From: a virus
IMG/VR virus record: IMGVR_UViG_3300005882_000371
Reading direction: 5' to 3' (one strand)
DNA: 8,170 bases
Of this stretch, positions 1-8,170 are shown piece after piece. The number at the start of each line of letters is the position of its first letter. The first letter of the stretch is position 1. The notes below the pieces were generated by a model. It made no database searches, was not told the origin of the DNA, and saw nothing but the letters and a program-made list of their open reading frames with translations. A program made the translations under genes and the position numbers.

Positions 1-99
1 GGAACTTCAGGATCACCGGCCACACCCGACCAAGGTTCATTTTCACCAGGTTCACGCGCAGTACCTGAAGAAACAAAATTCTGATACCTAAAACAAGCA
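1..99. repeat. Left copy of the exact 99-nt terminal overlap (identical to 8072..8170)
   Basis: Base-by-base comparison: ggaacttcaggatcaccggccacacccgaccaaggttcattttcaccaggttcacgcgcagtacctgaagaaacaaaattctgatacctaaaacaagca occurs at both ends. Confidence 0.97.
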
Positions 100-722
100 C
101 CAGAAGACTTTGAGCATTTAACCTGGGAATTAAGATCAGTACCGTGACCCGCTGCGCCTGGTTGCAACATAGTCGGGCTGACATATTCGCAACCGCCAGC
201 AGATACAACACCACCCAACTGAAAACCACCCTCTGGTAAATCTTCAGTAAAAACACCGTTCTCGTAAGTGCCTGTTACAGCAGTACCAACCCTTTTAACC
301 GTGCCAGTATCAGGGCAATCAGGGCCAACCGGACCACAAACCTCTGGATGCTGTTCAAGCCAAGTTGAAGTCTGAACCGAACATTCTTTTTTCTTAATCG
401 CAACGCCTCCCTGAGAACCTGAAGACGTTTCATAAATACCGTAATTAAGAGACTGAAGAGAACAATTAAACGCACCACTATAAGACGAACACCATGCACT
501 AAGAGCATCTGAACTTTTGTCACCGTACCCACCAATACTAAACGCCCATACAGAATAGAAATACCCCTCTTCACCGCTAGTATCCTCAATAGCAAATACG
601 GAACCAGCCCCAAAAAACGCCCCCAAAAACACCAACACAACAGCAATCTGATTCCCTGGATACCGCCAATTAAAGCCAGGTCTTAACCAGGGCTTTACCT
701 GGGAAAATAGAGATCTTTTCAT
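1..722 (-). CDS. 5' part (about codons 1-240) of a 515-aa pIII-like minor coat / adsorption protein; the gene continues across the circular junction into 8071..7246
   Basis: Missing from the ORF track because it runs off the left edge. ATG at 722..720 has GAGG 8 nt upstream. My translation: MKRSLFSQVKPWLRPGFNWRYPGNQIAVVLVFLGAFFGAGSVFA/IEDTSGEEGYFYSVWAFSIGGYGDKSSDALSAWCSSYSGAFNCSLQ...QVKCSKSSGACFRYQNFVSSGTAREPGENEPWSGVAGDPEV. It is in the same frame as the 282-aa ORF, whose first codon at 8094 equals nt 23 (722-23=699). The N-terminus looks like a signal peptide, followed by 8 Cys in about 190 aa. It sits directly after the major coat gene and terminator, as gIII does in Ff and orfU in CTXphi. 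Confidence 0.8.
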   Translation of the reverse strand, partial: MKRSLFSQVKPWLRPGFNWRYPGNQIAVVLVFLGAFFGAGSVFAIEDTSGEEGYFYSVWAFSIGGYGDKSSDALSAWCSSYSGAFNCSLQSLNYGIYETSSGSQGGVAIKKKECSVQTSTWLEQHPEVCGPVGPDCPDTGTVKRVGTAVTGTYENGVFTEDLPEGGFQLGGVVSAGGCEYVSPTMLQPGAAGHGTDLNSQVKCSKSSGACFRYQNFVSSGTAREPGENEPWSGVAGDPEV

Positions 723-736
723 CCTGAATACCTCAT

Positions 737-760
737 AAAAAAAGGGAGCCGAAGCCCCCT
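737..760 (-). terminator. Rho-independent terminator downstream of the major coat gene
   Basis: The minus strand reads AGGGGGC-TTCG-GCTCCCT followed by six more T (seven consecutive T in all). This is a 7-bp stem with one G-U pair, a C(UUCG)G tetraloop and a T-run. It lies between the coat gene and the pIII-like gene, as the gVIII terminator does in Ff phages. Confidence 0.8.
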
Positions 761-768
761 ATTTCTTA

Positions 769-846
769 CTAACTCATCCTGCCCGAGTGATACCCGATCA
801 CCACCACCAGGACGGACACCGATGCGAGTATCACCGTAACGAGCAT
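769..846 (-). CDS. Possible 25-aa hydrophobic micro-ORF abutting the coat gene stop (TAAATG)
   Basis: My translation is MLVTVILASVSVLVVVIGYHSGRMS. It has a single hydrophobic helix and a basic tail and ends just before the terminator. There is no SD, so expression would need coupling to coat translation. Below the ORF-track size cutoff. Confidence 0.3.
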   Translation of the reverse strand: MLVTVILASVSVLVVVIGYHSGRMS

Positions 847-1095
847 TTAGCGGTTGAGGAGCTTCAACATGATACCCAGACCAGTGATGACCAGGGCGAT
901 AGCGAAGATACCTGCAACGATCACTTCAGTAGAACCCTTGTTTGCATCAAGCGCCGCCTGAACCGCCGTATCATCAACCGCCCAAGTATTGGAGCTGACA
1001 ACCGCAGCACCCACCGTAATAGACGCAGTAGAAGCCTTAGATTTAACGGACTGGAATGCCTGAGCTGCACGAGCCTGGAAGCCTTTCAATTTCAT
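847..1095 (-). CDS. Major coat protein (pVIII / Cep-like), 82-aa precursor
   Basis: SD AAGGAA lies 9 nt upstream of the ATG. A leader ends ...SSNTWA. The predicted mature ~43-aa peptide is VDDTAVQAALDANKGSTEVIVAGIFAIALVITGLGIMLKLLNR, with an acidic N-terminus, hydrophobic core and basic C-terminus, the classic inovirus coat layout. A strong terminator follows. Confidence 0.85.
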   Translation of the reverse strand: MKLKGFQARAAQAFQSVKSKASTASITVGAAVVSSNTWAVDDTAVQAALDANKGSTEVIVAGIFAIALVITGLGIMLKLLNR

Positions 1096-1112
1096 GATTT
1101 GTATTTCCTTAT

Positions 1113-1430
1113 TTATTGACGAGACAAAGTTTTAACGCCGATTCCTGCACCCCACGACATTACAAACAGCAACAACATGCCGCTGGTAATAATCCCGTAA
1201 AGAGCCGGATCAAACGTAAGCCAACGATCCAAAGCAGCCAGCCAATTGTCTATCTGCGTTGGGTCGAGAGATTGGGTTGGTGAAGTTGGTTCAGTTGGTG
1301 AAATCGCTCCACTTGCTTCCAGCAGAGCGACCATTTCAGCCTCTGAACGATCTACAAAACCAGAATCACAGTGCCACCAGTTACCTGATGAATCTTTTCT
1401 GATTGAGCCTGCGCAAGTATGGATAGACAT
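1113..1430 (-). CDS. Hypothetical 105-aa protein with a C-terminal transmembrane helix (possible minor virion or assembly protein)
   Basis: The ORF fills the gap between the micro-ORF and the coat gene on the coding strand. The C-terminus LYGIITSGMLLLFVMSWGAGIGVKTLSRQ is a TM helix plus a basic tail. The middle is Pro/Thr/Ser-rich. I recognise no family. Confidence 0.6.
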   Translation of the reverse strand: MSIHTCAGSIRKDSSGNWWHCDSGFVDRSEAEMVALLEASGAISPTEPTSPTQSLDPTQIDNWLAALDRWLTFDPALYGIITSGMLLLFVMSWGAGIGVKTLSRQ

Positions 1431-1437
1431 TAAATTC

Positions 1438-1569
1438 TTAACCTAAAATCAGACAGCCAGTACAACCGCAAGAGCTGCAAAGCGTGGGCGTTGTGCGGCG
1501 ATCACCATTTTCATGGTAAGCACCGCGACCGCGACAAACTGGACAGATAACCGCGTACTGGACTGACAT
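1438..1569 (-). CDS. 43-aa Cys-rich (zinc-ribbon-like) micro-protein, translationally coupled to the ssDNA-binding protein gene
   Basis: Not in the ORF track because it is under 60 aa. The ATG overlaps the upstream TAA by 1 nt (TAATG). My translation is MSVQYAVICPVCRGRGAYHENGDRRTTPTLCSSCGCTGCLILG, with CxxCxGxG, an 18-residue spacer, then CxxCxCxxC. It ends 7 nt before the next ATG, so it exactly fills the gap between two confident genes. Confidence 0.55.
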   Translation of the reverse strand: MSVQYAVICPVCRGRGAYHENGDRRTTPTLCSSCGCTGCLILG

Positions 1570-1934
1570 TAAGAAGCCTTAGCCGGAGCAGGCTTTTTAA
1601 CCTGAGAAGCGAGATAGGAATCAAGCTGACCAACCTCACACACTTTCTTCATAGAAGCGGCGATTTTGCGATCATCAAGACCCAGACCCTTGTAACGATC
1701 CACTTGCATAAGATCAGACGGATCAAGAGCGTAAACACCTTCCAACATAGCAACGGGAGCACCTGAAACCGGATCAGATGGAGGCGTGAAAACAAACTCA
1801 GTCGGATACGGAGAAGAAGGAAAACGCACCCAACCTGTTTGCTCATGCATCGTGTACGGCTTGCCTGTTTTCTGACTTACACCAGAGCGGGTATCGATAA
1901 CGCTTGCATGAATTTCAATAACTAACTTTGCCAT
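1569..1934 (-). CDS. ssDNA-binding protein, gene V protein (G5P) family
   Basis: 121 aa. VIDTRSGVSQKTGKPYTMHEQTGWV closely parallels the Ff gene V protein segment TTRSGVSRQGKPYSLNEQLCYV (recalled from memory). It sits immediately after Rep and overlaps Rep's end by 13 nt. SD AAGGGG lies upstream. Confidence 0.88.
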   Translation of the reverse strand: MAKLVIEIHASVIDTRSGVSQKTGKPYTMHEQTGWVRFPSSPYPTEFVFTPPSDPVSGAPVAMLEGVYALDPSDLMQVDRYKGLGLDDRKIAASMKKVCEVGQLDSYLASQVKKPAPAKAS

Positions 1935-3073
1935 GATGAGGCCCCTTGATTGTTAACGTCTGGAGCCGACCAAGGTCCAGAATCAGTGATAGGTAAAGAT
2001 GCCCCGACAGCTTTTTCTAAGCGACGAGGGACAGCGAATTCATTACGAGAAATAAGAGCTTCGACGATCTGAGAATCAGTCATACCCTTGGATTGACGCA
2101 TAACGTTAATCAAAGGCCCGTAGCTTTCACGAGCACTCGATTCCATACGTTCATAACCAATTTTCACCTTGGTTTTGCGTTCTGTTTTGATAAGCCTAGG
2201 CTCAACATCTTTGTGCTTCTGAATCTCCTCTCTGAAGACCTCAAAAGCAGGATACGAACCCAAGAAATAGGAAGCCGGATCAGTCAGGATAAAGAGCGGT
2301 ATCTCCCGATCTTTTGAGTGTATTTCTACCTCCCATCGCGTCCAGCGACTGGAAGGATCACCCTGCTGTTTACCCTTTTCGTAAATCCGGCAAAGCTTGC
2401 CACTTTTACGACTGCCGACCTGAAAAGTCCGACCGCCTGTGTATTCGATATCGCGTTCAATTCCATATTCGTTTTTGACCAACTTACCGCCAGACTTGAA
2501 CCAATCATGATTAGGATTCACACCGCCTTTACGCATCTTGAATGCGCCCAGCATCCACTGCTCAAAGGCATAATCGCAGCTGTAACGACCCTCGTGATCG
2601 TCATACGCGAGATCGACACGGGTGATCTTGATCAGAGGCAAATACTTGATCTGGGAAAGCAGCTTTTCAGGATCAATCAACGCTGTACCTTCACCTGAAA
2701 ACGAGATGTAACAACCACCGTTTTTAGCCCCAGAAGCAGCAATACCAATGTGCGTACCGTTCAAGTACAAATCCCAGCTAGAGCGATAGCCAAACATCCC
2801 ACGACCACGTTCATACATCGTAAAAACTTCAGACCAAGTGTCGTAAGTCGTCCATTCCTGACCTGCAAAGAAATCCTTAGTGATCATCTGACAAAACGTA
2901 GTGACATTTTCCCGACAAGACTGATCTAAGAAATCAATATCAATAGCTGGCTGTGATGCGTCCCGATTCTTCAGGAACTGAGCAAAAGACTGTTTACCAG
3001 CAGCAGCCAAACGGCGGATGGGCTCAAGATCATCGGGGCAGAAAGTGAAGGAAATGTAATCAATGATCACCAT
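1922..3073 (-). CDS. Rolling-circle replication initiator, Rep_trans family (RstA of CTXphi / RepC of pT181 type)
   Basis: 383 aa. Recognisable Rep_trans-type blocks: N-terminal IDYISFTF, RVDLAYDD, GGRTFQVGSRKSGKLCRIYEKG and TRWEVEIH. A GGGGG SD lies about 6 nt upstream of the ATG. It heads the operon that is divergent from the repressor gene. Confidence 0.88.
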   Translation of the reverse strand: MVIIDYISFTFCPDDLEPIRRLAAAGKQSFAQFLKNRDASQPAIDIDFLDQSCRENVTTFCQMITKDFFAGQEWTTYDTWSEVFTMYERGRGMFGYRSSWDLYLNGTHIGIAASGAKNGGCYISFSGEGTALIDPEKLLSQIKYLPLIKITRVDLAYDDHEGRYSCDYAFEQWMLGAFKMRKGGVNPNHDWFKSGGKLVKNEYGIERDIEYTGGRTFQVGSRKSGKLCRIYEKGKQQGDPSSRWTRWEVEIHSKDREIPLFILTDPASYFLGSYPAFEVFREEIQKHKDVEPRLIKTERKTKVKIGYERMESSARESYGPLINVMRQSKGMTDSQIVEALISRNEFAVPRRLEKAVGASLPITDSGPWSAPDVNNQGASSWQS

Positions 3074-3281
3074 TGAACACCCCCGCTTCGTAGAGATCGT
3101 TCCAGTTTTCTGAAGTGACTTCGATCAGGAGTGCAGACGGCGGGACGTAGGAAAGCATGGAGTTGTAAGAGCGGAAAAACTCAATACCACCACACGGCTC
3201 CATGAGATGAAAACATCCATGCTCCCGTTCGTAGTAGTAAGTTTCGCCGTTGCGTTCCATGAAAATAATCCGTGTAACCAT
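3060..3281 (-). CDS. Hypothetical 73-aa acidic protein, first ORF of the replication operon
   Basis: The ORF overlaps the rep start by 14 nt. There is no SD, and the ATG lies only about 8 nt downstream of the predicted transcription start, so the mRNA would be near-leaderless. I recognise no family. Confidence 0.5.
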   Translation of the reverse strand: MVTRIIFMERNGETYYYEREHGCFHLMEPCGGIEFFRSYNSMLSYVPPSALLIEVTSENWNDLYEAGVFNGDH

Positions 3282-3356
3282 GCTTAGTTACAGCGATCCT
3301 AGAACCAGTTTTGGTTACTGTCAACCGATATTGTTACGTTAACAAAGGTGGTTACG
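3274..3356. promoter_or_regulatory. Divergent control region between the repressor gene and the replication operon, with a sigma70-like promoter for rep and iterated TGGTTAC motifs
   Basis: Minus strand: TTGACA (3324..3319), a 17-nt spacer, then TAGGAT (3301..3296). GTTAC occurs 4 times in direct orientation (3287, 3314, 3333, 3351) and once inverted (3274-3278). The full 7-mer TGGTTAC is at 3312-3318 and 3349-3355, and inverted at 3274-3280. The outer copies overlap the two divergent start codons. A small palindrome AACCA-N4-TGGTT lies at 3303-3316. Confidence 0.6.
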
Positions 3357-3704
3357 ATGAACTACGATATAAAAACACTACTTTCACAACTAAAAAAGGC
3401 CATAAATTCAATGAGATGGTTCGATAGCTACGTGGACGAACTCAAGGACAGGCTAAATTTGGAATCGGATTACCAAGTCGCTAAGTATCTGGAGGTATCA
3501 CGCCAATACTTAACAAAAGTGCGGAATGGACAGCCGCTAGGAAGGCAGCATTGCATACGGATAGCCAGAGCCTTGAGAAGAGACCCATTAGAAATCATTG
3601 CAACAGCAGAAGCCCAGAGAGAAAAAGACCCGGACCTAAAAGCCATATGGGTAAAACTGGCCAAAGAAAAGGGGAATACAGATAAGTGGCAATCGGTACA
3701 CTAA
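3357..3704 (+). CDS. HTH transcriptional repressor (RstR-like position and orientation), 115 aa from the ATG at 3357
   Basis: SD AGGTGG lies 6 nt upstream of the ATG at 3357. The track's start at 3348 is a GTG inside that SD region. The helix-turn-helix segment is DYQVAKYLEVSRQYLTKVRNGQ. It is transcribed divergently from rep, as rstR is in CTXphi. Confidence 0.8.
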   Translation: MNYDIKTLLSQLKKAINSMRWFDSYVDELKDRLNLESDYQVAKYLEVSRQYLTKVRNGQPLGRQHCIRIARALRRDPLEIIATAEAQREKDPDLKAIWVKLAKEKGNTDKWQSVH

Positions 3705-3805
3705 GACGAGTTTCAAGCGCGGGGGTTTGGAGCTTCGTAGACCCAGCAATACAGCGGGTTTCAAGGGAGTGGCAACCAATAGCCAGCACATAGCGTAATT
3801 TAAGT

Positions 3806-3833
3806 TTCCCCCCCTATTAGTACATGGGGGGAA
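3806..3833 (-). other. C6/G7 stem-loop; candidate plus-strand replication origin (nick-site hairpin)
   Basis: The minus strand reads TTCCCCCC-ATGTACTAATA-GGGGGG(G)AA, an 8-bp stem. The loop carries ACT-AATAG, resembling the f1 gpII site CTTT/AATAG and the pT181 RepC site ACTCT/AATAG, which also sits in a GC-rich hairpin loop. The structure is certain; the function is inferred. Confidence 0.45.
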
Positions 3834-4227
3834 CACCCCTCCCGAACCCCGTCAGACCGACACACAAAACACGTGACCTACGGCCACTTGCCGATCCCTG
3901 CGCACAACTTGCCCGACCGCTACGCGCCCGCCCCGCCCTAACGGGTAGGCTACGCCTATTGCTTACAATCGCTCTGCGACCGCCGAGAGCTACGGAATAA
4001 AACAACTGACCAACGGAACAAGGCCAAAAGGACGATAAAAGATGGCTTATCAGGGTCGGAGTTGGAGCAGAGCAAGAAAGGACTTCAGTGCGAACGCGGT
4101 ACTAGTGAAAACGTGGTACTGGGTGCGACGAGATAGAGAAGCCAAGGACAAGGTTACGGCCAATCAGCATAGAGCACCGATCAGCCGTGAGGTGTGGCCT
4201 ATCAACGGCTACGCCGCTAAAAACCCG

Positions 4228-4374
4228 CTATCTCCCACCGCATAAAGACAACGACTGAAAAACAAGATCATCATACTGACTAAACCTAGCCATCATATAA
4301 AAGACCATAACGATAGCAGTGGAACCGGCACCCATCGCAAACGGGGCTATAAACATCATACTTTTTTCAAACAT
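4228..4374 (-). CDS. Possible 48-aa membrane micro-protein, last ORF of the accessory operon
   Basis: SD AAGGAA lies 5 nt upstream of the ATG at 4374. My translation is MFEKSMMFIAPFAMGAGSTAIVMVFYMMARFSQYDDLVFQSLSLCGGR, with one hydrophobic helix. Below the ORF-track cutoff. Confidence 0.45.
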   Translation of the reverse strand: MFEKSMMFIAPFAMGAGSTAIVMVFYMMARFSQYDDLVFQSLSLCGGR

Positions 4375-4412
4375 AACAATTCCTTTTTTGTGACTGTCAC
4401 GTCTAGTGCGTA

Positions 4413-4529
4413 CTAATGAAACCGGATCATAACCTCATCAACCCAAACATAGCCTCTACGCCATGAATTATAATCAGACACCCTTTCAGCCATGATGACA
4501 AAAATATCAATCTTATCCGAACGACTCAT
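4413..4529 (-). CDS. Possible 38-aa micro-ORF coupled (ATGA overlap) to the XRE gene
   Basis: The ATG at 4529..4527 overlaps the XRE TGA stop at 4528..4526. My translation is MSRSDKIDIFVIMAERVSDYNSWRRGYVWVDEVMIRFH. I recognise no family. Confidence 0.4.
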   Translation of the reverse strand: MSRSDKIDIFVIMAERVSDYNSWRRGYVWVDEVMIRFH

Positions 4530-4744
4530 AAGTCAAATTCCTTTTGATCCTCATACGGTAGCTCTACAGACCACCCCTTAAGGCAAAGCCACCGGATCGC
4601 AAGCTCTGTGCGCTTCTCAATCGGCGATTCTCCCCGCTCCATCAAGCTGACCAGCTGGCGCGTTACTCCCAGATCCCGTGCAAATTCAGTTTGTGAAAGA
4701 CCCAAAATATCCTTTCGAGCCTTTTTCATGACAGCAGGAGTCAC
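4526..4744 (-). CDS. XRE-family helix-turn-helix protein, 72 aa (67 aa if it starts at the internal ATG at 4729)
   Basis: The classic XRE HTH is LSQTEFARDLGVTRQLVSLMERGE. The GTG start overlaps the upstream stop (GTGA), with GGTG 6 nt upstream. Confidence 0.85.
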   Translation of the reverse strand: MTPAVMKKARKDILGLSQTEFARDLGVTRQLVSLMERGESPIEKRTELAIRWLCLKGWSVELPYEDQKEFDL

Positions 4745-5031
4745 TTAACACACCGTGAATATTTCAATTTATTAAAACGATAACCGCCGAACGAAGACCA
4801 TTTATAAACGCTTCTCTTAAAATCACGCCCGCTGAACAAAAACCGATAAACAACAAGCCAGTAATCAGGGCTACAATCATCATCAAAAATCTCTGCATAC
4901 TCCGAAGGCATCAAACCCTTAGACTTAACACGCAACGCACGATACAGACGTTTCCATTTACTTTTTGCACTGAAATCCAACTCTAATTGCGTCATTTCCC
5001 TAATCCCTGTTCCGTTATTTGATGAAACCAT
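4741..5031 (-). CDS. Hypothetical basic protein, 96 aa (84 aa if it starts at the ATG at 4995), first gene of the accessory operon
   Basis: Lys/Arg-rich, with no family I recognise. The predicted -10 element overlaps the ATG at 5031. The second in-frame ATG at 4995 has GGGA 8 nt upstream and may be the true start. It is translationally coupled to the downstream XRE gene. Confidence 0.6.
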   Translation of the reverse strand: MVSSNNGTGIREMTQLELDFSAKSKWKRLYRALRVKSKGLMPSEYAEIFDDDCSPDYWLVVYRFLFSGRDFKRSVYKWSSFGGYRFNKLKYSRCVK

Positions 5032-5100
5032 TATGACAAACTATTGGTCATTTGTACACGCTTTTTGACTAATTATTTGTCATTGGTTTATGAATAATTC
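5025..5100. promoter_or_regulatory. Second control region: imperfect inverted repeat around candidate divergent promoters
   Basis: AAACCAttATGACAAA (5025-5040) is an inverted match to TTTGTCATTGGTTT (5076-5089), 14 nt with a 2-nt insertion. A third GGTCAT copy lies at about 5046-5051. Minus-strand promoter candidate: TGTACA (5058..5053), 17 nt, CATAAT (5035..5030). Plus-strand candidate: TTGACT (5065-5070), 18 nt, TATGAA (5089-5094). Confidence 0.4.
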
Positions 5101-5145
5101 GACTGCAGTGGAAATGAAAAAGACAAGAAATTCAAACAAGACTGG

Positions 5146-5253
5146 ATTACGAATAATGCATTTATGTAAAAGAAAAAGCCCGTACTATCAATAGGTTACG
5201 GGCTTCTTTTTACGTTGGGTCGGGGACCTACATAAACGCACATTATACGTAAT
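5146..5253. repeat. Imperfect 108-nt inverted repeat whose arms are dif-like (XerC/XerD-type) motifs; candidate ssDNA-folded attP and/or packaging signal
   Basis: Arm A, plus strand 5146-5172: ATTACGAATAA-TGCAT-TTATGTAAAAG. Arm B, minus strand 5253..5225: ATTACGTATAA-TGTGCGT-TTATGTAGGTC. The arms pair as 6+6+8 bp with one mismatch and an internal bubble exactly at the central region. Compared with E. coli dif (GGTGCGCATAA-TGTATA-TTATGTTAAAT), arm A matches 7/11 and 9/11 and arm B matches 7/11 and 6/11. Confidence 0.6.
5168..5212. terminator. Bidirectional rho-independent terminator at the end of the morphogenesis operon
   Basis: A 9-bp GC-cored stem pairs AAGCCCGTA (5176-5184) with TACGGGCTT (5197-5205), with further pairing possible in the loop (CTAT/ATAG). 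It is followed by CTTTTT on the plus strand and TTTCTTTT on the minus strand. Confidence 0.75.
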
Positions 5254-5295
5254 TTGATATTCACGAAAACAAAGGGCTCTCAGGTATGTAAGCAA

Positions 5296-5406
5296 CTACG
5301 AACCGGAAAACGAAAAAACAAAAGCACAAAGACAAGCCCATACAACGAGACCGAAATCAGCAAACAAAACAAGCTCTAACACTTCTATAAATTCTTGCTC
5401 AGACAT
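5296..5406 (-). CDS. Possible 36-aa hydrophobic micro-ORF downstream of zot
   Basis: SD GGAGAA lies 7 nt upstream of the ATG at 5406. My translation is MSEQEFIEVLELVLFADFGLVVWACLCAFVFSFSGS, with an acidic N-terminus and one TM helix. It lies between zot and the terminator. Below the ORF-track cutoff. Confidence 0.45.
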   Translation of the reverse strand: MSEQEFIEVLELVLFADFGLVVWACLCAFVFSFSGS

Positions 5407-5499
5407 CTAAACATTCTCCAAACAGTTAACGGGCAAAGCCCGTACCCAGACCGCATACCATCCCCAAAATCGTTATGACAATTTGTGCCGAGGAATTAA

Positions 5500-6921
5500 C
5501 TACATGAACTTGTTAGCAGGATTACCAGGTAAAGGTTTAACGTCCGACACTGTGACTGTGGGCGCGGGTATCGCCCCAGGCTTCCCCCCGCGTCCTCGTC
5601 TCAGTTCCTGGGCGTGAAGATGACGGACCATGACGGACCAATCACCTTTGTAGAGCAATAAACCCGATGGTGAGTAATGTTCCTGAAAACCATAAGAACG
5701 TACTTCATCCTGGAAGAATCGCGTTACCAGGGAACCGCCCTGGTAAACGTTGATTGAATACTTAACCTCGCCGCTGTTACTCATAATCAGAGCCGCACCT
5801 AAACGAACCAGGTAACCAGGATCAGTGAAATATGCCTGGAAGTGATCAGCCGGTGATTTCATATATGACGCCAACGGTTGAGGTTCTACGTTACCAGGAA
5901 CGTAAGCAACGTTACTCGGCCCCGCCGATCCTGGTGGTGTTAAGGTGTTAAATTCCCCAGCAAGGTCAGTCTTAGCAATCCGGACACGATCAACATTCCG
6001 AGAATTATCAGGGGAACCCTGATCAGGATTTTTAGGGTCTTCTTTAGAACTGGAGCCAACCATCCCAGCAATACCCGCATCGGACTCAATAACTTTCGAA
6101 AGACTGTTTGCAAAGAACCCAAGCGTTGCCAGTAGGAGGACTCCATACATCGCCAAACGAGGGTCTCGCCATAAAGAGCGAGTTTCTGACGTACCTTTAG
6201 CTTTTCCGGTTTTGGTCGATTGGTAGCAGTCGAAGACGCGGGTGTCCGCCTTGTATTTCTTGGGTGAACCGAGATAGTGCGATGCAGACTTGCCGTTGTT
6301 TTCTGGGTCATGAGAGAACTCCTTCCAGGATGTAGCCCAGGACTTGAGAAAAGCCCCAAGTCCGCGATGACGGTATGCAACCTCTACAACCTGGCGAATT
6401 TCGGGATGGATTTTAGCGATGTTCGGCGTACACAGGTAAATATCCCAGTTGTAGTGCCGGTGCATGTCAAAAGCTTCCTCTACGGTCTCAGGGCGTTCGG
6501 TACTACCATCCCACCACTGATACCGTGTATCGGCCTCTCTCGACTGCTGAAGCTGCTCTGAGGGCAATGGATCACCCTCAGCGTCAGTAAGGGTTAAATC
6601 CAGTTTAGAGAGGTCTCTAAACCGGGTCTTGTTGTACACCTTCTGTGCTTCATCAATGATGATGAGCGCACCCGGTGGGGCCCAATGAAAAAACCGGGCT
6701 ATCGTTTCGAAGCCGGCCTTTTTATCAGGCTCGATATACATAATCTGTGCATCATCCGGTAACCGAATGTCCATCGCCTCCTCTATCTTTCTAGGATCGT
6801 TAAAGCCGCGGATATTGGTTACAACGGTACGTCCTTTCTCGAGCGCTGGAATCGCTACACGCTCCAGGACACCGAAAGACTTAAAAGACCCTGGCGGGCC
6901 GTGATGAATACAACCTGTCAT
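5500..6921 (-). CDS. zot: Zot / pI-family inovirus assembly ATPase, 473 aa
   Basis: IHHGPPGSFKS is a Walker A with an aromatic residue, as in V. cholerae Zot IHHGAPGSYKT. Other matches are ITNIRGFN, LIIIDEAQ (Walker B) and AFDMHRHYNWDIYLCTPNIAKIH (compare Zot AFDMHRHHGWDICLTTPNIAKVH, from memory). One TM helix lies at about aa 256-274, followed by a ~200-aa C-terminal domain. SD GGGAGA lies 6 nt upstream of the ATG. Confidence 0.95.
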   Translation of the reverse strand: MTGCIHHGPPGSFKSFGVLERVAIPALEKGRTVVTNIRGFNDPRKIEEAMDIRLPDDAQIMYIEPDKKAGFETIARFFHWAPPGALIIIDEAQKVYNKTRFRDLSKLDLTLTDAEGDPLPSEQLQQSREADTRYQWWDGSTERPETVEEAFDMHRHYNWDIYLCTPNIAKIHPEIRQVVEVAYRHRGLGAFLKSWATSWKEFSHDPENNGKSASHYLGSPKKYKADTRVFDCYQSTKTGKAKGTSETRSLWRDPRLAMYGVLLLATLGFFANSLSKVIESDAGIAGMVGSSSKEDPKNPDQGSPDNSRNVDRVRIAKTDLAGEFNTLTPPGSAGPSNVAYVPGNVEPQPLASYMKSPADHFQAYFTDPGYLVRLGAALIMSNSGEVKYSINVYQGGSLVTRFFQDEVRSYGFQEHYSPSGLLLYKGDWSVMVRHLHAQELRRGRGGKPGAIPAPTVTVSDVKPLPGNPANKFM

Positions 6922-6932
6922 GAGGTATCTCC

Positions 6933-7253
6933 CTATACCATGTCGAGAATGAAGCGAGTAACAAAGGCGTTAAGCAGTATGTTGATGGCTTCAGGAAAGT
7001 TGTACCGAGTGGCAACCCCTAAAAGATTGGAGTCAAGACTCCCCCACGCCTGGTTAATTACATCGGAGATATTCAGCTGATCGATCATTGCCTGGGCCAC
7101 GCCCCAAGCAAAGCCAATCGCCGCGATCTTCAACTTAAACCACCAGGTGACAACCCATACCATCATCGATGCAAACATCTCATGGATGAAGTTGTAAGAC
7201 TCAGTTGTCATGAAGTCATAAACCCCTTGGATAGCTTCTAAAATCTCACCCAC
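6933..7253 (-). CDS. pVI / Ace-like minor coat protein, 106 aa
   Basis: The GTG start has AGGAGGG 7 nt upstream and overlaps the pIII-like stop by 8 nt. A hydrophobic core reads MMVWVVTWWFKLKIAAIGFAWGVA. The C-terminal LLNAFVTRFILDMV resembles the end of CTXphi Ace (LQALMTRFALRAL, from memory). It occupies the canonical slot between pIII and pI. Confidence 0.8.
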   Translation of the reverse strand: MGEILEAIQGVYDFMTTESYNFIHEMFASMMVWVVTWWFKLKIAAIGFAWGVAQAMIDQLNISDVINQAWGSLDSNLLGVATRYNFPEAINILLNAFVTRFILDMV

Positions 7254-8170
7254 GAGACGACCCTCCTAACACAATATAAGCCGCCAAAATCCCAGCAACA
7301 GCCAGGACAAGCGCACCAAAATTAAACTGATCTAAATACGGAACCCATTTACTGAAACCAATATCACCGGAAACCCCTTTAAGCGTAATCTCATTACTCT
7401 GAATTGTGCCGCCACCATTAACACCGAAATTAAACTTCTGTTTAACCTGGTCTTTAATGTCGTCAAACAGTTCCTGGTACTCGTCTCGGGCTTCATTCAT
7501 TTCGGTCATACCTGACGCGAATTCACCGCCGTCACCCTTATCAAATTCACCGATACACCGATCCATCAAAGGATTCGTATCACAGGTTTCCTCTTCCTGT
7601 TCTTCCCTGGCGTTATCGTCTCCCTGGACCGGTCCTTCTTCCCTGGTCTCGCCGGTCTTGGTTCCGTCCGAAGAAAAATCTTCGACAGTCCTGGTCTGTT
7701 GGGTAGATGTACCACCACCCGTAGCCGTGACAGTCACGCGATTATTACTACGGTCGATGTTGTAGACAGTCTGGGGATGCTGGGTATAGGAAATATTGTT
7801 GGTAGTCTCGACAGTTTTCGAACCATCAGCATTAGTTGTAGTGACTGTTGTTTGGGTATCCGTACGAGTTATGCCGTCCGATCGGGTGACCGTAGTGACA
7901 TCATCCTGGGATTGAACAACAGAACCATCCCCCCGCGTTTCCGTCGTGGTTGTGGTTTGTGTGGTTTGAGTAGTATCACCGACTTGTTCTGTAATGGGAT
8001 CGGTAGAAGTAGTAGATGTACGGCTTTCGCGTGTGTCGGTCGATGCTTCTGTAGATTCATTCGGAACCTCTGGAACTTCAGGATCACCGGCCACACCCGA
8101 CCAAGGTTCATTTTCACCAGGTTCACGCGCAGTACCTGAAGAAACAAAATTCTGATACCTAAAACAAGCA
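7246..8170 (-). CDS. 3' part of the 515-aa pIII-like adsorption protein (the frame stays open to the right window edge; 8072..8170 duplicates 1..99)
   Basis: The track's 282-aa ORF begins at an internal GTG (8094), but the frame has no stop up to 8170 and continues into 1..722 after wrapping. A Thr/Asp/Gln-rich low-complexity region of about 155 aa comes first. A C-terminal domain follows (CDTNPLMDRCIGEF...) and ends in the membrane anchor ALVLAVAGILAAYIVLGG plus SSRG. Confidence 0.85.
   Translation of the reverse strand, partial: ACFRYQNFVSSGTAREPGENEPWSGVAGDPEVPEVPNESTEASTDTRESRTSTTSTDPITEQVGDTTQTTQTTTTTETRGDGSVVQSQDDVTTVTRSDGITRTDTQTTVTTTNADGSKTVETTNNISYTQHPQTVYNIDRSNNRVTVTATGGGTSTQQTRTVEDFSSDGTKTGETREEGPVQGDDNAREEQEEETCDTNPLMDRCIGEFDKGDGGEFASGMTEMNEARDEYQELFDDIKDQVKQKFNFGVNGGGTIQSNEITLKGVSGDIGFSKWVPYLDQFNFGALVLAVAGILAAYIVLGGSSRG
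8072..8170. repeat. Right copy of the exact 99-nt terminal overlap (identical to 1..99)
   Basis: Same comparison as the left copy. The overlap lies inside an open reading frame, which fits a circularisation artefact rather than a biological terminal repeat. Confidence 0.97.

Follow-up and report, generated by a model that had tools for sequence, protein, structure and literature searches.

A conserved GC-rich hairpin as the very probable plus-strand origin nick site of an uncultivated inovirus with a Rep_trans initiator

Introduction

Replication origins in which the initiator nicks the loop of a hairpin have been described for plasmids and for filamentous phages. In plasmids of the pT181 family the nick consensus is CT/AATAGC, and the nick region of a Rep_trans plasmid from S. 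mutans reads ACTACTAATAGC (PMC3547324). The pT181 origin is located inside the rep coding region and continues into a defined binding repeat, ICRIII (PMC5703833; PMC4797284). The M13 protein nicks at TT/AA (PMC11765958). In the filamentous phage CTXphi, the RstA cut falls between a G and a T of the apical loop in the hairpin of the plus-strand origin, ori(+), which spans around 167 bp, contains multiple hairpins and is nicked in an HU-dependent manner (PMC4439123); Ig-1 and RstA are sufficient for rolling-circle products in E. coli (PMC8265649). When read from the sequence records, the pT181 hairpin (NC_001393) is AACCGGC-TACTCTAATA-GCCGGTT, nicked at TACTCT/AATA, the M13 hairpin is GAGTCCAC-GTTCTTTAATA-GTGGACTC, nicked at GTTCTTT/AATA, and the CTXphi hairpin is ACCCCC-GTCTAGTATTAC-GGGGGT, nicked at GTCTAG/TATTAC. 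Here we describe a GC-rich hairpin on the minus strand of IMG/VR virus record IMGVR_UViG_3300005882_000371 (positions 3806–3833), a stretch of 8,170 nucleotides (nt) that is called the window throughout. Comparison with related genomes indicates that this is very probably the plus-strand (double-strand) origin nick hairpin for the 383-residue Rep_trans protein (Rep) encoded in the window. Rep_trans origin nick hairpins arranged like CTXphi ig-1 are already known, and the hairpin in the window adds one more, ordinary example.

Results

Structure of the hairpin

The hairpin is formed by a perfect 8-nt inverted repeat, detected with a repeat finder, with 12 nt between the arms (Table 1). The original prediction had read the minus strand from 3850 to 3806 as GGGG TTC GGG A GGGG TGTT CCCCCC ATGTACTAATA GGGGGGG AA, with the C run paired to the G run around a loop containing AATAG. 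This reading is exact and the hairpin is present, the actual stem being 8 bp and the actual loop 12 nt long. CTAATAG, in agreement with the pT181-family nick consensus CT/AATAG, is part of the loop ATGTACTAATAG, whose core TACTAATAG is found as a single copy in the window, on the minus strand only. The hairpin dominates the predicted DNA fold ensemble, at -8.1 kcal/mol and with a mean pair probability of 0.90. It is located 101 nt past the stop codon of a helix-turn-helix (HTH) repressor-like gene. Nearly all genes of the window are on the minus strand, which is therefore taken to be the viral (+) strand, and the motif is on the strand of the structural genes, as had been predicted.

By itself the structure proves nothing, and the hairpin is not statistically special alone. 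However, the 17-mer CCCATRTACTAATAGGG, for which the expectation is 0.03 per window even with three mismatches allowed, recurs on the Rep strand of relatives that otherwise have no DNA similarity in the region, and the feature is therefore significant through its conservation.

Conservation among Rep relatives

Ten relatives were chosen via homology of the Rep protein, not via the motif (34–55% identity). The first six (L005, L006, L007, L009, L010 and L013), which are circular or near-complete genomes with Rep proteins 42–55% identical to that of the window, all have a C run, ATRTACTAATAG (that is, AT(A/G)TACTAATAG) and a G run on the Rep strand. Four further relatives (L064, L065, L066 and L067, with Rep 34–44% identical) formed an out-of-sample set. 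Taken together, the C-run/G-run hairpin is present on the Rep strand in all ten, with the loop core TACTAATAG in eight and TAGTAATAC in two. Loops of the window type are invariant among these relatives except for the purine at position 3. The loop of L066 is identical to that of the window, while L064 (10325–10360; Rep 43% identical) has the loop ATATATACTAATAG, with a 2-nt insertion, an indication that length may change in the 5' half of the loop but not in TACTAATAG. L065, a Neptuniibacter prophage (16450–16490), and L067, from Aeromonas (16495–16535), have the variant loops GCATAGTAATAC and GTGTAGTAATAC, respectively, both of the form G(C/T)(A/G)TAGTAATAC. In L005 to L010 the hairpin ends 23–79 nt past the 3' end of a leftward regulator gene, and in L013 it overlaps the called end of the leftward gene. 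Repressor coding sequence aside, the hairpin is the sole conserved island of DNA in the approximately 760 nt around it; the nick region is conserved among related replicons and the flanks differ between subgroups.

Two alleles of the nick loop can be distinguished, with the same build of a C run, 12 nt and a G run: ATRTACTAATAG, as in the window, and G(T/C)(A/G)TAGTAATAC, as in Vibrio phage VCY and the Neptuniibacter and Aeromonas prophages. The CTXphi loop GTCTAGTATTAC (L028, 801–824) is near the TAGTAATAC allele, and the VCY copy is located at 6147–6172 of L026. The Aeromonas contig L067 contains two inovirus-like modules in opposite orientation (69–5662 and 10001–15333), one with a Phage_CRI/G2P-type initiator and the other with Rep_trans. 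The motif is not shared by all Rep_trans inoviruses, since a simple filter for GC-stem hairpins with AATA- or TATTA-type loops gave no convincing analogue in RSS1, Cf2, VGJphi and inovirus D_HF3_10.

To describe the stem, 28 distinct hairpins were aligned without gaps. In this alignment the four inner C:G pairs are fixed by the search pattern and the outer pairs are free to vary. Pair 9:32 is CG in 12 hairpins and AU in 11; pair 10:31 is CG in 20, AU in three and UA in two; pair 8:33 is UA in 20, with two AU and two CG; and pair 7:34 is UA in 12 and CG in five. Double-sided changes number 36, against 17.2 ± 3.0 in shuffles, none of 500 of which reach 36, and the covariation score is 0.312, compared with at most 0.179 for slid registers. 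Judged from the aligned sequences, the outer stem pairs covary and the loop is fixed.

Linkage to Rep_trans genes

A pattern scan of viral contigs gave 12 matches, seven of them with a Rep_trans gene on the same strand (33–35% identical); the other five, with poor stems and no Rep gene, are probably due to chance. A stricter pattern gave 30 matches in metagenomes. Counting the window, a Rep_trans hit was obtained in 28 loci with the motif, and in all 28 the motif and rep share a strand. Matches in L014/L024, L016 and L020/L025, which have stems of 2–4 bp and no Rep_trans gene, were set aside as probable chance matches.

In L031 (997–2140), L039 (273–1353), L040 (584–1453), L051 (15–1024) and L054 (1816–2916), an identical loop ends 10–40 nt before the reading frame of a distantly related Rep_trans protein. 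L031, L039 and L054 additionally carry Rol_Rep_N; a LysM protein is encoded by L039, and a tyrosine integrase, a single-stranded DNA-binding protein (SSB) and a GH25-LysM lysin by L054, while neither of the two showed genes for inovirus morphogenesis. These five elements are apparently not filamentous phages. Since the hairpin is present near Rep_trans in elements without inovirus morphogenesis genes, it travels with the initiator and not with the packaging genes.

A copy with a 6-bp stem is located at 2690–2701 of L030 (the same sequence is present in L041). It adjoins a cold-shock/Excalibur-domain gene, and there is no Rep_trans gene in 7.3 kb. This copy could be a chance match, a remnant or the origin of a Rep-less satellite.

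Predicted cleavage site and proposed mechanism

By analogy with pT181, M13 and the S. mutans plasmid, the cut is somewhat more likely to fall between T3819 and A3818 (ACT/AATAG) than elsewhere. Possibly it falls instead between C3820 and T3819 (TAC/TAATAG), in the register of CTXphi, which is obtained by aligning the 12-nt segments between the runs of CTXphi, VCY and the window. It may be speculated that a one-base offset in primer extension reconciles both registers.

The proposed mechanism is modelled by analogy on pT181 RepC/RepD, Ff gpII and CTXphi RstA. Extrusion of the inverted repeat as a hairpin or cruciform from the supercoiled replicative DNA would expose the loop in single-stranded form. 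The Rep_trans protein would then attack the loop with its predicted catalytic tyrosine, Y231, most likely at T3819/A3818 or else one base 5' of it, becoming covalently joined to the 5' phosphate and leaving a 3'-OH. A host polymerase would extend this 3'-OH around the circle in plus-strand synthesis. On reaching the regenerated hairpin, Rep would cut and religate, upon which the circular viral strand would be released. The conserved loop would be the catalytic substrate common to many Rep_trans proteins, and the variable flanks, especially 3777–3805, probably supply Rep-specific binding.

Flanking sequences

Just 3' of the hairpin is a candidate element for Rep binding or specificity (Table 1). 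The 60-nt block from 3836 to 3777 is 86.7% identical to L006, though the two Rep proteins are only 53% identical. Between subgroups the 3' flank varies, with ..TAAAGTCTC.. in L010, L013, L048 and VCY. Positions 3777–3805 are proposed as the binding element because they are conserved with L006 yet variable between subgroups, the pattern expected of a binding locus.

On the other side, directly 5' of the C arm (window 3836–3850), there is a G-rich element, GAGGGGTG or GGTGGGG-like, which recurs only in L007, L055 and L066. Possibly it contributes to a clade-specific binding site.

Genome context

The window begins and ends with the same 99 nt (1–99 and 8072–8170), so it is a circular, circularly permuted inovirus genome of about 8.07 kb assembled with a terminal overlap; the unit is around 8071 nt, and the region from coat to pIII spans the window ends. 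The features are listed in Table 1.

Table 1. Features of the window and of the proposed origin region.
Feature	Positions	Strand	Sequence or matches
Putative nick-site hairpin	3806..3833	minus	5' arm TTCCCCCC (3833-3826), loop ATGTACTAATAG (3825-3814), 3' arm GGGGGGAA (3813-3806)
Loop with predicted cleavage site	3814..3825	minus	pT181-family nick consensus match
Candidate Rep-binding/specificity element, just 3' of hairpin	3777..3805	minus	ACTTAAATTACGCTATGTGCTGGCTATTG
Upstream G runs (GGGG TTC GGG A GGGG TGTT), able to pair with part of the C run	3828..3850	minus	
Rep_trans initiator, 383 residues	1922..3073	minus	Pfam Rep_trans (PF02486) E = 2e-23; PHROG 453 replication initiation protein E = 1e-74
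Single-stranded DNA-binding protein	1934..1569	minus	
Coat-like open reading frames		minus	
DUF2523/pVI-like protein	7253..6933	minus	
Zot/pI-like protein	6921..5500	minus	
HTH repressor-like gene, divergently transcribed	3348..3704	plus	HTH_3 E = 1e-4; PHROG transcriptional regulator families
Second small HTH gene, between zot and origin	4744..4526	minus	

The 383-residue protein is the predicted enzyme that cuts the hairpin. The original prediction had placed it in the Rep_trans family, and this assignment is borne out by the Pfam match and by the presence of all catalytic motifs, as defined in PMC5714925: R152-x-D154 (RxD), Y231 in RIYEKGKQ (YxK) and W244-x-R246-x-E248 (WxRxE). Across these motifs the protein aligns to RepSTK1 (PDB entry 4cij). 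Phage_CRI (the gpII family, PF05144) was not detected in it; Rep_trans alone matched. Among named phages, Vibrio phage VCY has the most similar Rep, at 36% identity, and the closest metagenomic Rep proteins are 42–55% identical; initial searches of viral and genome contigs with Rep were uninformative, giving distant relatives only (28–34% identity). At the DNA level, megablast of the whole window revealed no similar phage record, and in a blastn search of the phage collection with a 91-nt region the only matches were spurious, G-rich ones to Gordonia phages. No family match was obtained for a 96-residue open reading frame upstream of the second HTH gene (region 4526–5031, minus strand), nor any match for a 67-residue plus-strand open reading frame in the intergenic region (4042–4245).

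Other copies of AATAG in the window, such as the one at 3960 on the minus strand (AAGCAATAGGCG), were rejected as nick sites, not being conserved in any relative. A dif or attP site at the hairpin was likewise rejected: there is no dif-like match (28-bp XerC/XerD arms) at 3806–3850. The best dif-like sequence of the window is on the plus strand at 5146–5173, ATTACGAATAATGCATTTATGTAAAAGA, and matches a Xanthomonas-type dif sequence at 16 of 28 positions; its similarity to E. coli dif was seen by eye only. It directly follows a terminator-like element just 3' of zot on the viral strand, a 9-bp hairpin and a T run, AAGCCCGTA-acctattgatag-TACGGGCTT TTTCTTTT (5176–5205). In L006, L007 and L010 the same hairpin is followed by ACATAAnnnnnATTATGCGAAG-type sites, and in L009 the hairpin is inverted. 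From its sequence, 5146–5173 is a probable XerCD attP.

Discussion

Alternative interpretations

The core of the original prediction, in which a Rep_trans protein would nick the plus-strand origin within the loop of a GC hairpin, has strong comparative support. Several observations weigh against it. Cleavage, its polarity and its exact position are deduced from sequence comparison, and the analogies with pT181/M13 and with CTXphi differ by one nucleotide on the cut. The DNA fold z-score of the local region against shuffles is only -0.78, that of the whole intergenic region is -0.38, and structure flanking the hairpin in the window does not reach significance; folding energy was dropped as evidence for function on account of these scores. 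Perfect hairpins of at least 8 bp are expected 1.2 ± 0.9 times per shuffled window, and four are observed. Loci found by pattern scan have an invariant loop by construction, which leaves the Rep-derived loci and the outer stem as independent evidence. L014, L016, L020, L030, L032, L047 and L049 match the pattern and have no Rep gene or no good stem; by a rough estimate, the number of such matches is about that expected by chance for collections of that size. Finally, the repeat finder detected no inverted or direct repeat like ICRIII at 3777–3805.

Packaging signals and minus-strand origins are strand-specific hairpins in the intergenic regions of inoviruses, as known from Ff biology, and the hairpin described here is on the packaged strand. 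It is nevertheless very unlikely to be a packaging signal or minus-strand (single-strand) origin instead of a Rep nick site: its loop equals the Rep_trans nick consensus, it accompanies Rep_trans genes even where inovirus morphogenesis genes are absent, and its build and position match the mapped nick hairpin of CTXphi. The packaging signals and minus-strand origins of Ff, moreover, are much longer, imperfect hairpins.

The stem is GC-rich and located 101 nt past the repressor stop, between convergent transcription units, as would suit a transcription terminator or a stem-loop stabilising the repressor mRNA (plus strand) or the transcripts of the convergent structural operon. We consider this highly improbable. 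Neither strand has a T run after the stem, the loop measures 12 nt, a terminator scan makes no call and a search of Rfam matched no family. A terminator would also not be expected to keep an invariant loop across Rep proteins of 34–55% identity, and in other elements the hairpin is directly upstream of rep genes.

The original prediction also contained a structural switch, in which formation of the GGGG-TGTT-CCCC hairpin would tie up part of the C arm and so mask the nick site. This competing hairpin does exist in the sequence, but its role as a switch is not supported, because it is thermodynamically negligible and not conserved. The pairing of GGGG (3839–3836) with CCCC (3831–3828) across TGTT has a free energy of -3.7 kcal/mol, against -8.1 kcal/mol for the proposed nick hairpin, and its probability in the ensemble is 0.001, against 0.90. 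Runs of four G within 25 nt upstream are somewhat commoner than background, being present in 5 of 26 distinct motif-bearing loci compared with around 0.05 per 25-nt window (range 0.01–0.20), and VCY, L044, L047 and L051 have extra downstream C or G runs that are able to compete for an arm. However, such G runs are absent from the other 21 loci and their geometry differs where present. None of the other loci has a comparably tight GGGG-loop-CCCC hairpin, and in L066 only TT separates the G run from the C run, so no loop can form. A nick hairpin regulated by such a switch is thus hardly probable.

As for a functionless chance occurrence, the fold z-score, the roughly one hairpin of at least 8 bp expected per window and the 12 copies of AATAG in the window would allow it, but recurrence in ten of ten independent relatives, covariation and strand linkage to Rep effectively refute it.

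Implications

With the nick hairpin as the preferred interpretation, the likely start of replication of an uncultivated inovirus lineage is located to within one nucleotide. The C run, followed by ATRTACTAATAG or GYRTAGTAATAC and a G run, is a searchable signature with which ori(+) may be located in many unannotated Rep_trans filamentous phages and prophages. It defines a minimal element for replication assays or phagemid-type vectors, and delimits the viral single-stranded DNA that Rep would excise from tandem prophages. The T/AATAG nick core links Gram-positive pT181-type plasmids, Ff phages and inoviruses from marine and other environments, a link that fits a shared ancestry of the Rep_trans and gpII origins.

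An identical 12-nt loop is common to Rep_trans proteins of 25–55% identity and to non-inovirus elements with an integrase, SSB and lysin. Because of this, the nick loop could be regarded as a shared "currency", with co-resident elements, including Rep-less satellites that have nothing but the hairpin, for which L030/L041 are candidates, nicked and mobilised by each other's Rep. The flanks alone would then set specificity, the TACTAATAG and TAGTAATAC alleles would represent cross-incompatible nicking groups and, separately, the extra G and C runs near the hairpin could act as a structural switch in particular clades. This combined proposal is unlikely as a whole.

Comparison with known systems

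The original prediction had pointed to a similarity to the sites of f1 gpII and pT181 RepC, which is confirmed by the actual pT181 and M13 records. The pT181 family (RepC/RepD, ICRII), like other Gram-positive Rep_trans plasmids related to it such as pUA140/pDC09, has a PF02486 initiator with the same catalytic motifs as the window. In both, a GC-rich inverted repeat on the leading strand presents the nick sequence in its loop, with the core CT/AATAG in common, and the nick region of the S. mutans plasmid matches the window loop at nine of nine bases (TACTAATAG). Unlike in pT181, where the origin is within rep, the putative origin in the window is 733 nt upstream of rep, beyond the repressor gene, and no ICRIII-like repeat was found with it. 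The window stem is homopolymeric C/G, and a Gram-negative-type inovirus is being compared with a Gram-positive plasmid.

The Ff phages (M13/f1) are also inoviruses. Their viral strand forms a hairpin with an 8-bp stem and is nicked in the hairpin loop, and GTTCTTT/AATA(G) shares T/AATAG with the window. However, gpII belongs to Phage_CRI (PF05144) and not to Rep_trans, the stem sequence is unrelated, and the Ff origin is just upstream of gene II, with no repressor gene in between.

CTXphi resembles the window in being a filamentous phage with a Rep_trans initiator (RstA) and a non-coding origin just 3' of a divergent repressor gene. The distance from repressor stop to hairpin is 84 nt (from rstR) in CTXphi and 101 nt in the window, and in both the hairpin is upstream of the rep module on the viral strand, so that the predicted analogy with ig-1 holds. 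When the window is compared with this mapped RstA-type origin, the build also matches, with a C run and a G run (C5 and G5 in CTXphi) separated by 12 nt and followed by (T)AAA. The loop sequence agrees less well: only 7 of 12 positions are the same (GTCTAGTATTAC versus ATGTACTAATAG), and in place of the CTXphi nick-loop CTAG/TATT the window has the TACTAATAG type. RstA is around 26% identical to the window Rep. The CTXphi loop is shortened to 8 nt by pairing of its two outer bases, and the reported cut at G/T is one base 5' of the pT181 register.

VCY, for which we found no experimental mapping of the origin, has a Rep protein 36% identical to that of the window. Its hairpin, read from the record as TCACCCC-GTATAGTAATAC-GGGGTGA on the Rep strand, is located 64 nt past the 3' end of a leftward gene. 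Its C and G runs are likewise 12 nt apart, and the loop agrees with that of the window at 8 of 12 positions. After the hairpin VCY has AAGTCTC, like L010, L013 and L048. Its loop differs from that of the window in being the TAGTAATAC variant, intermediate between the window and CTXphi.

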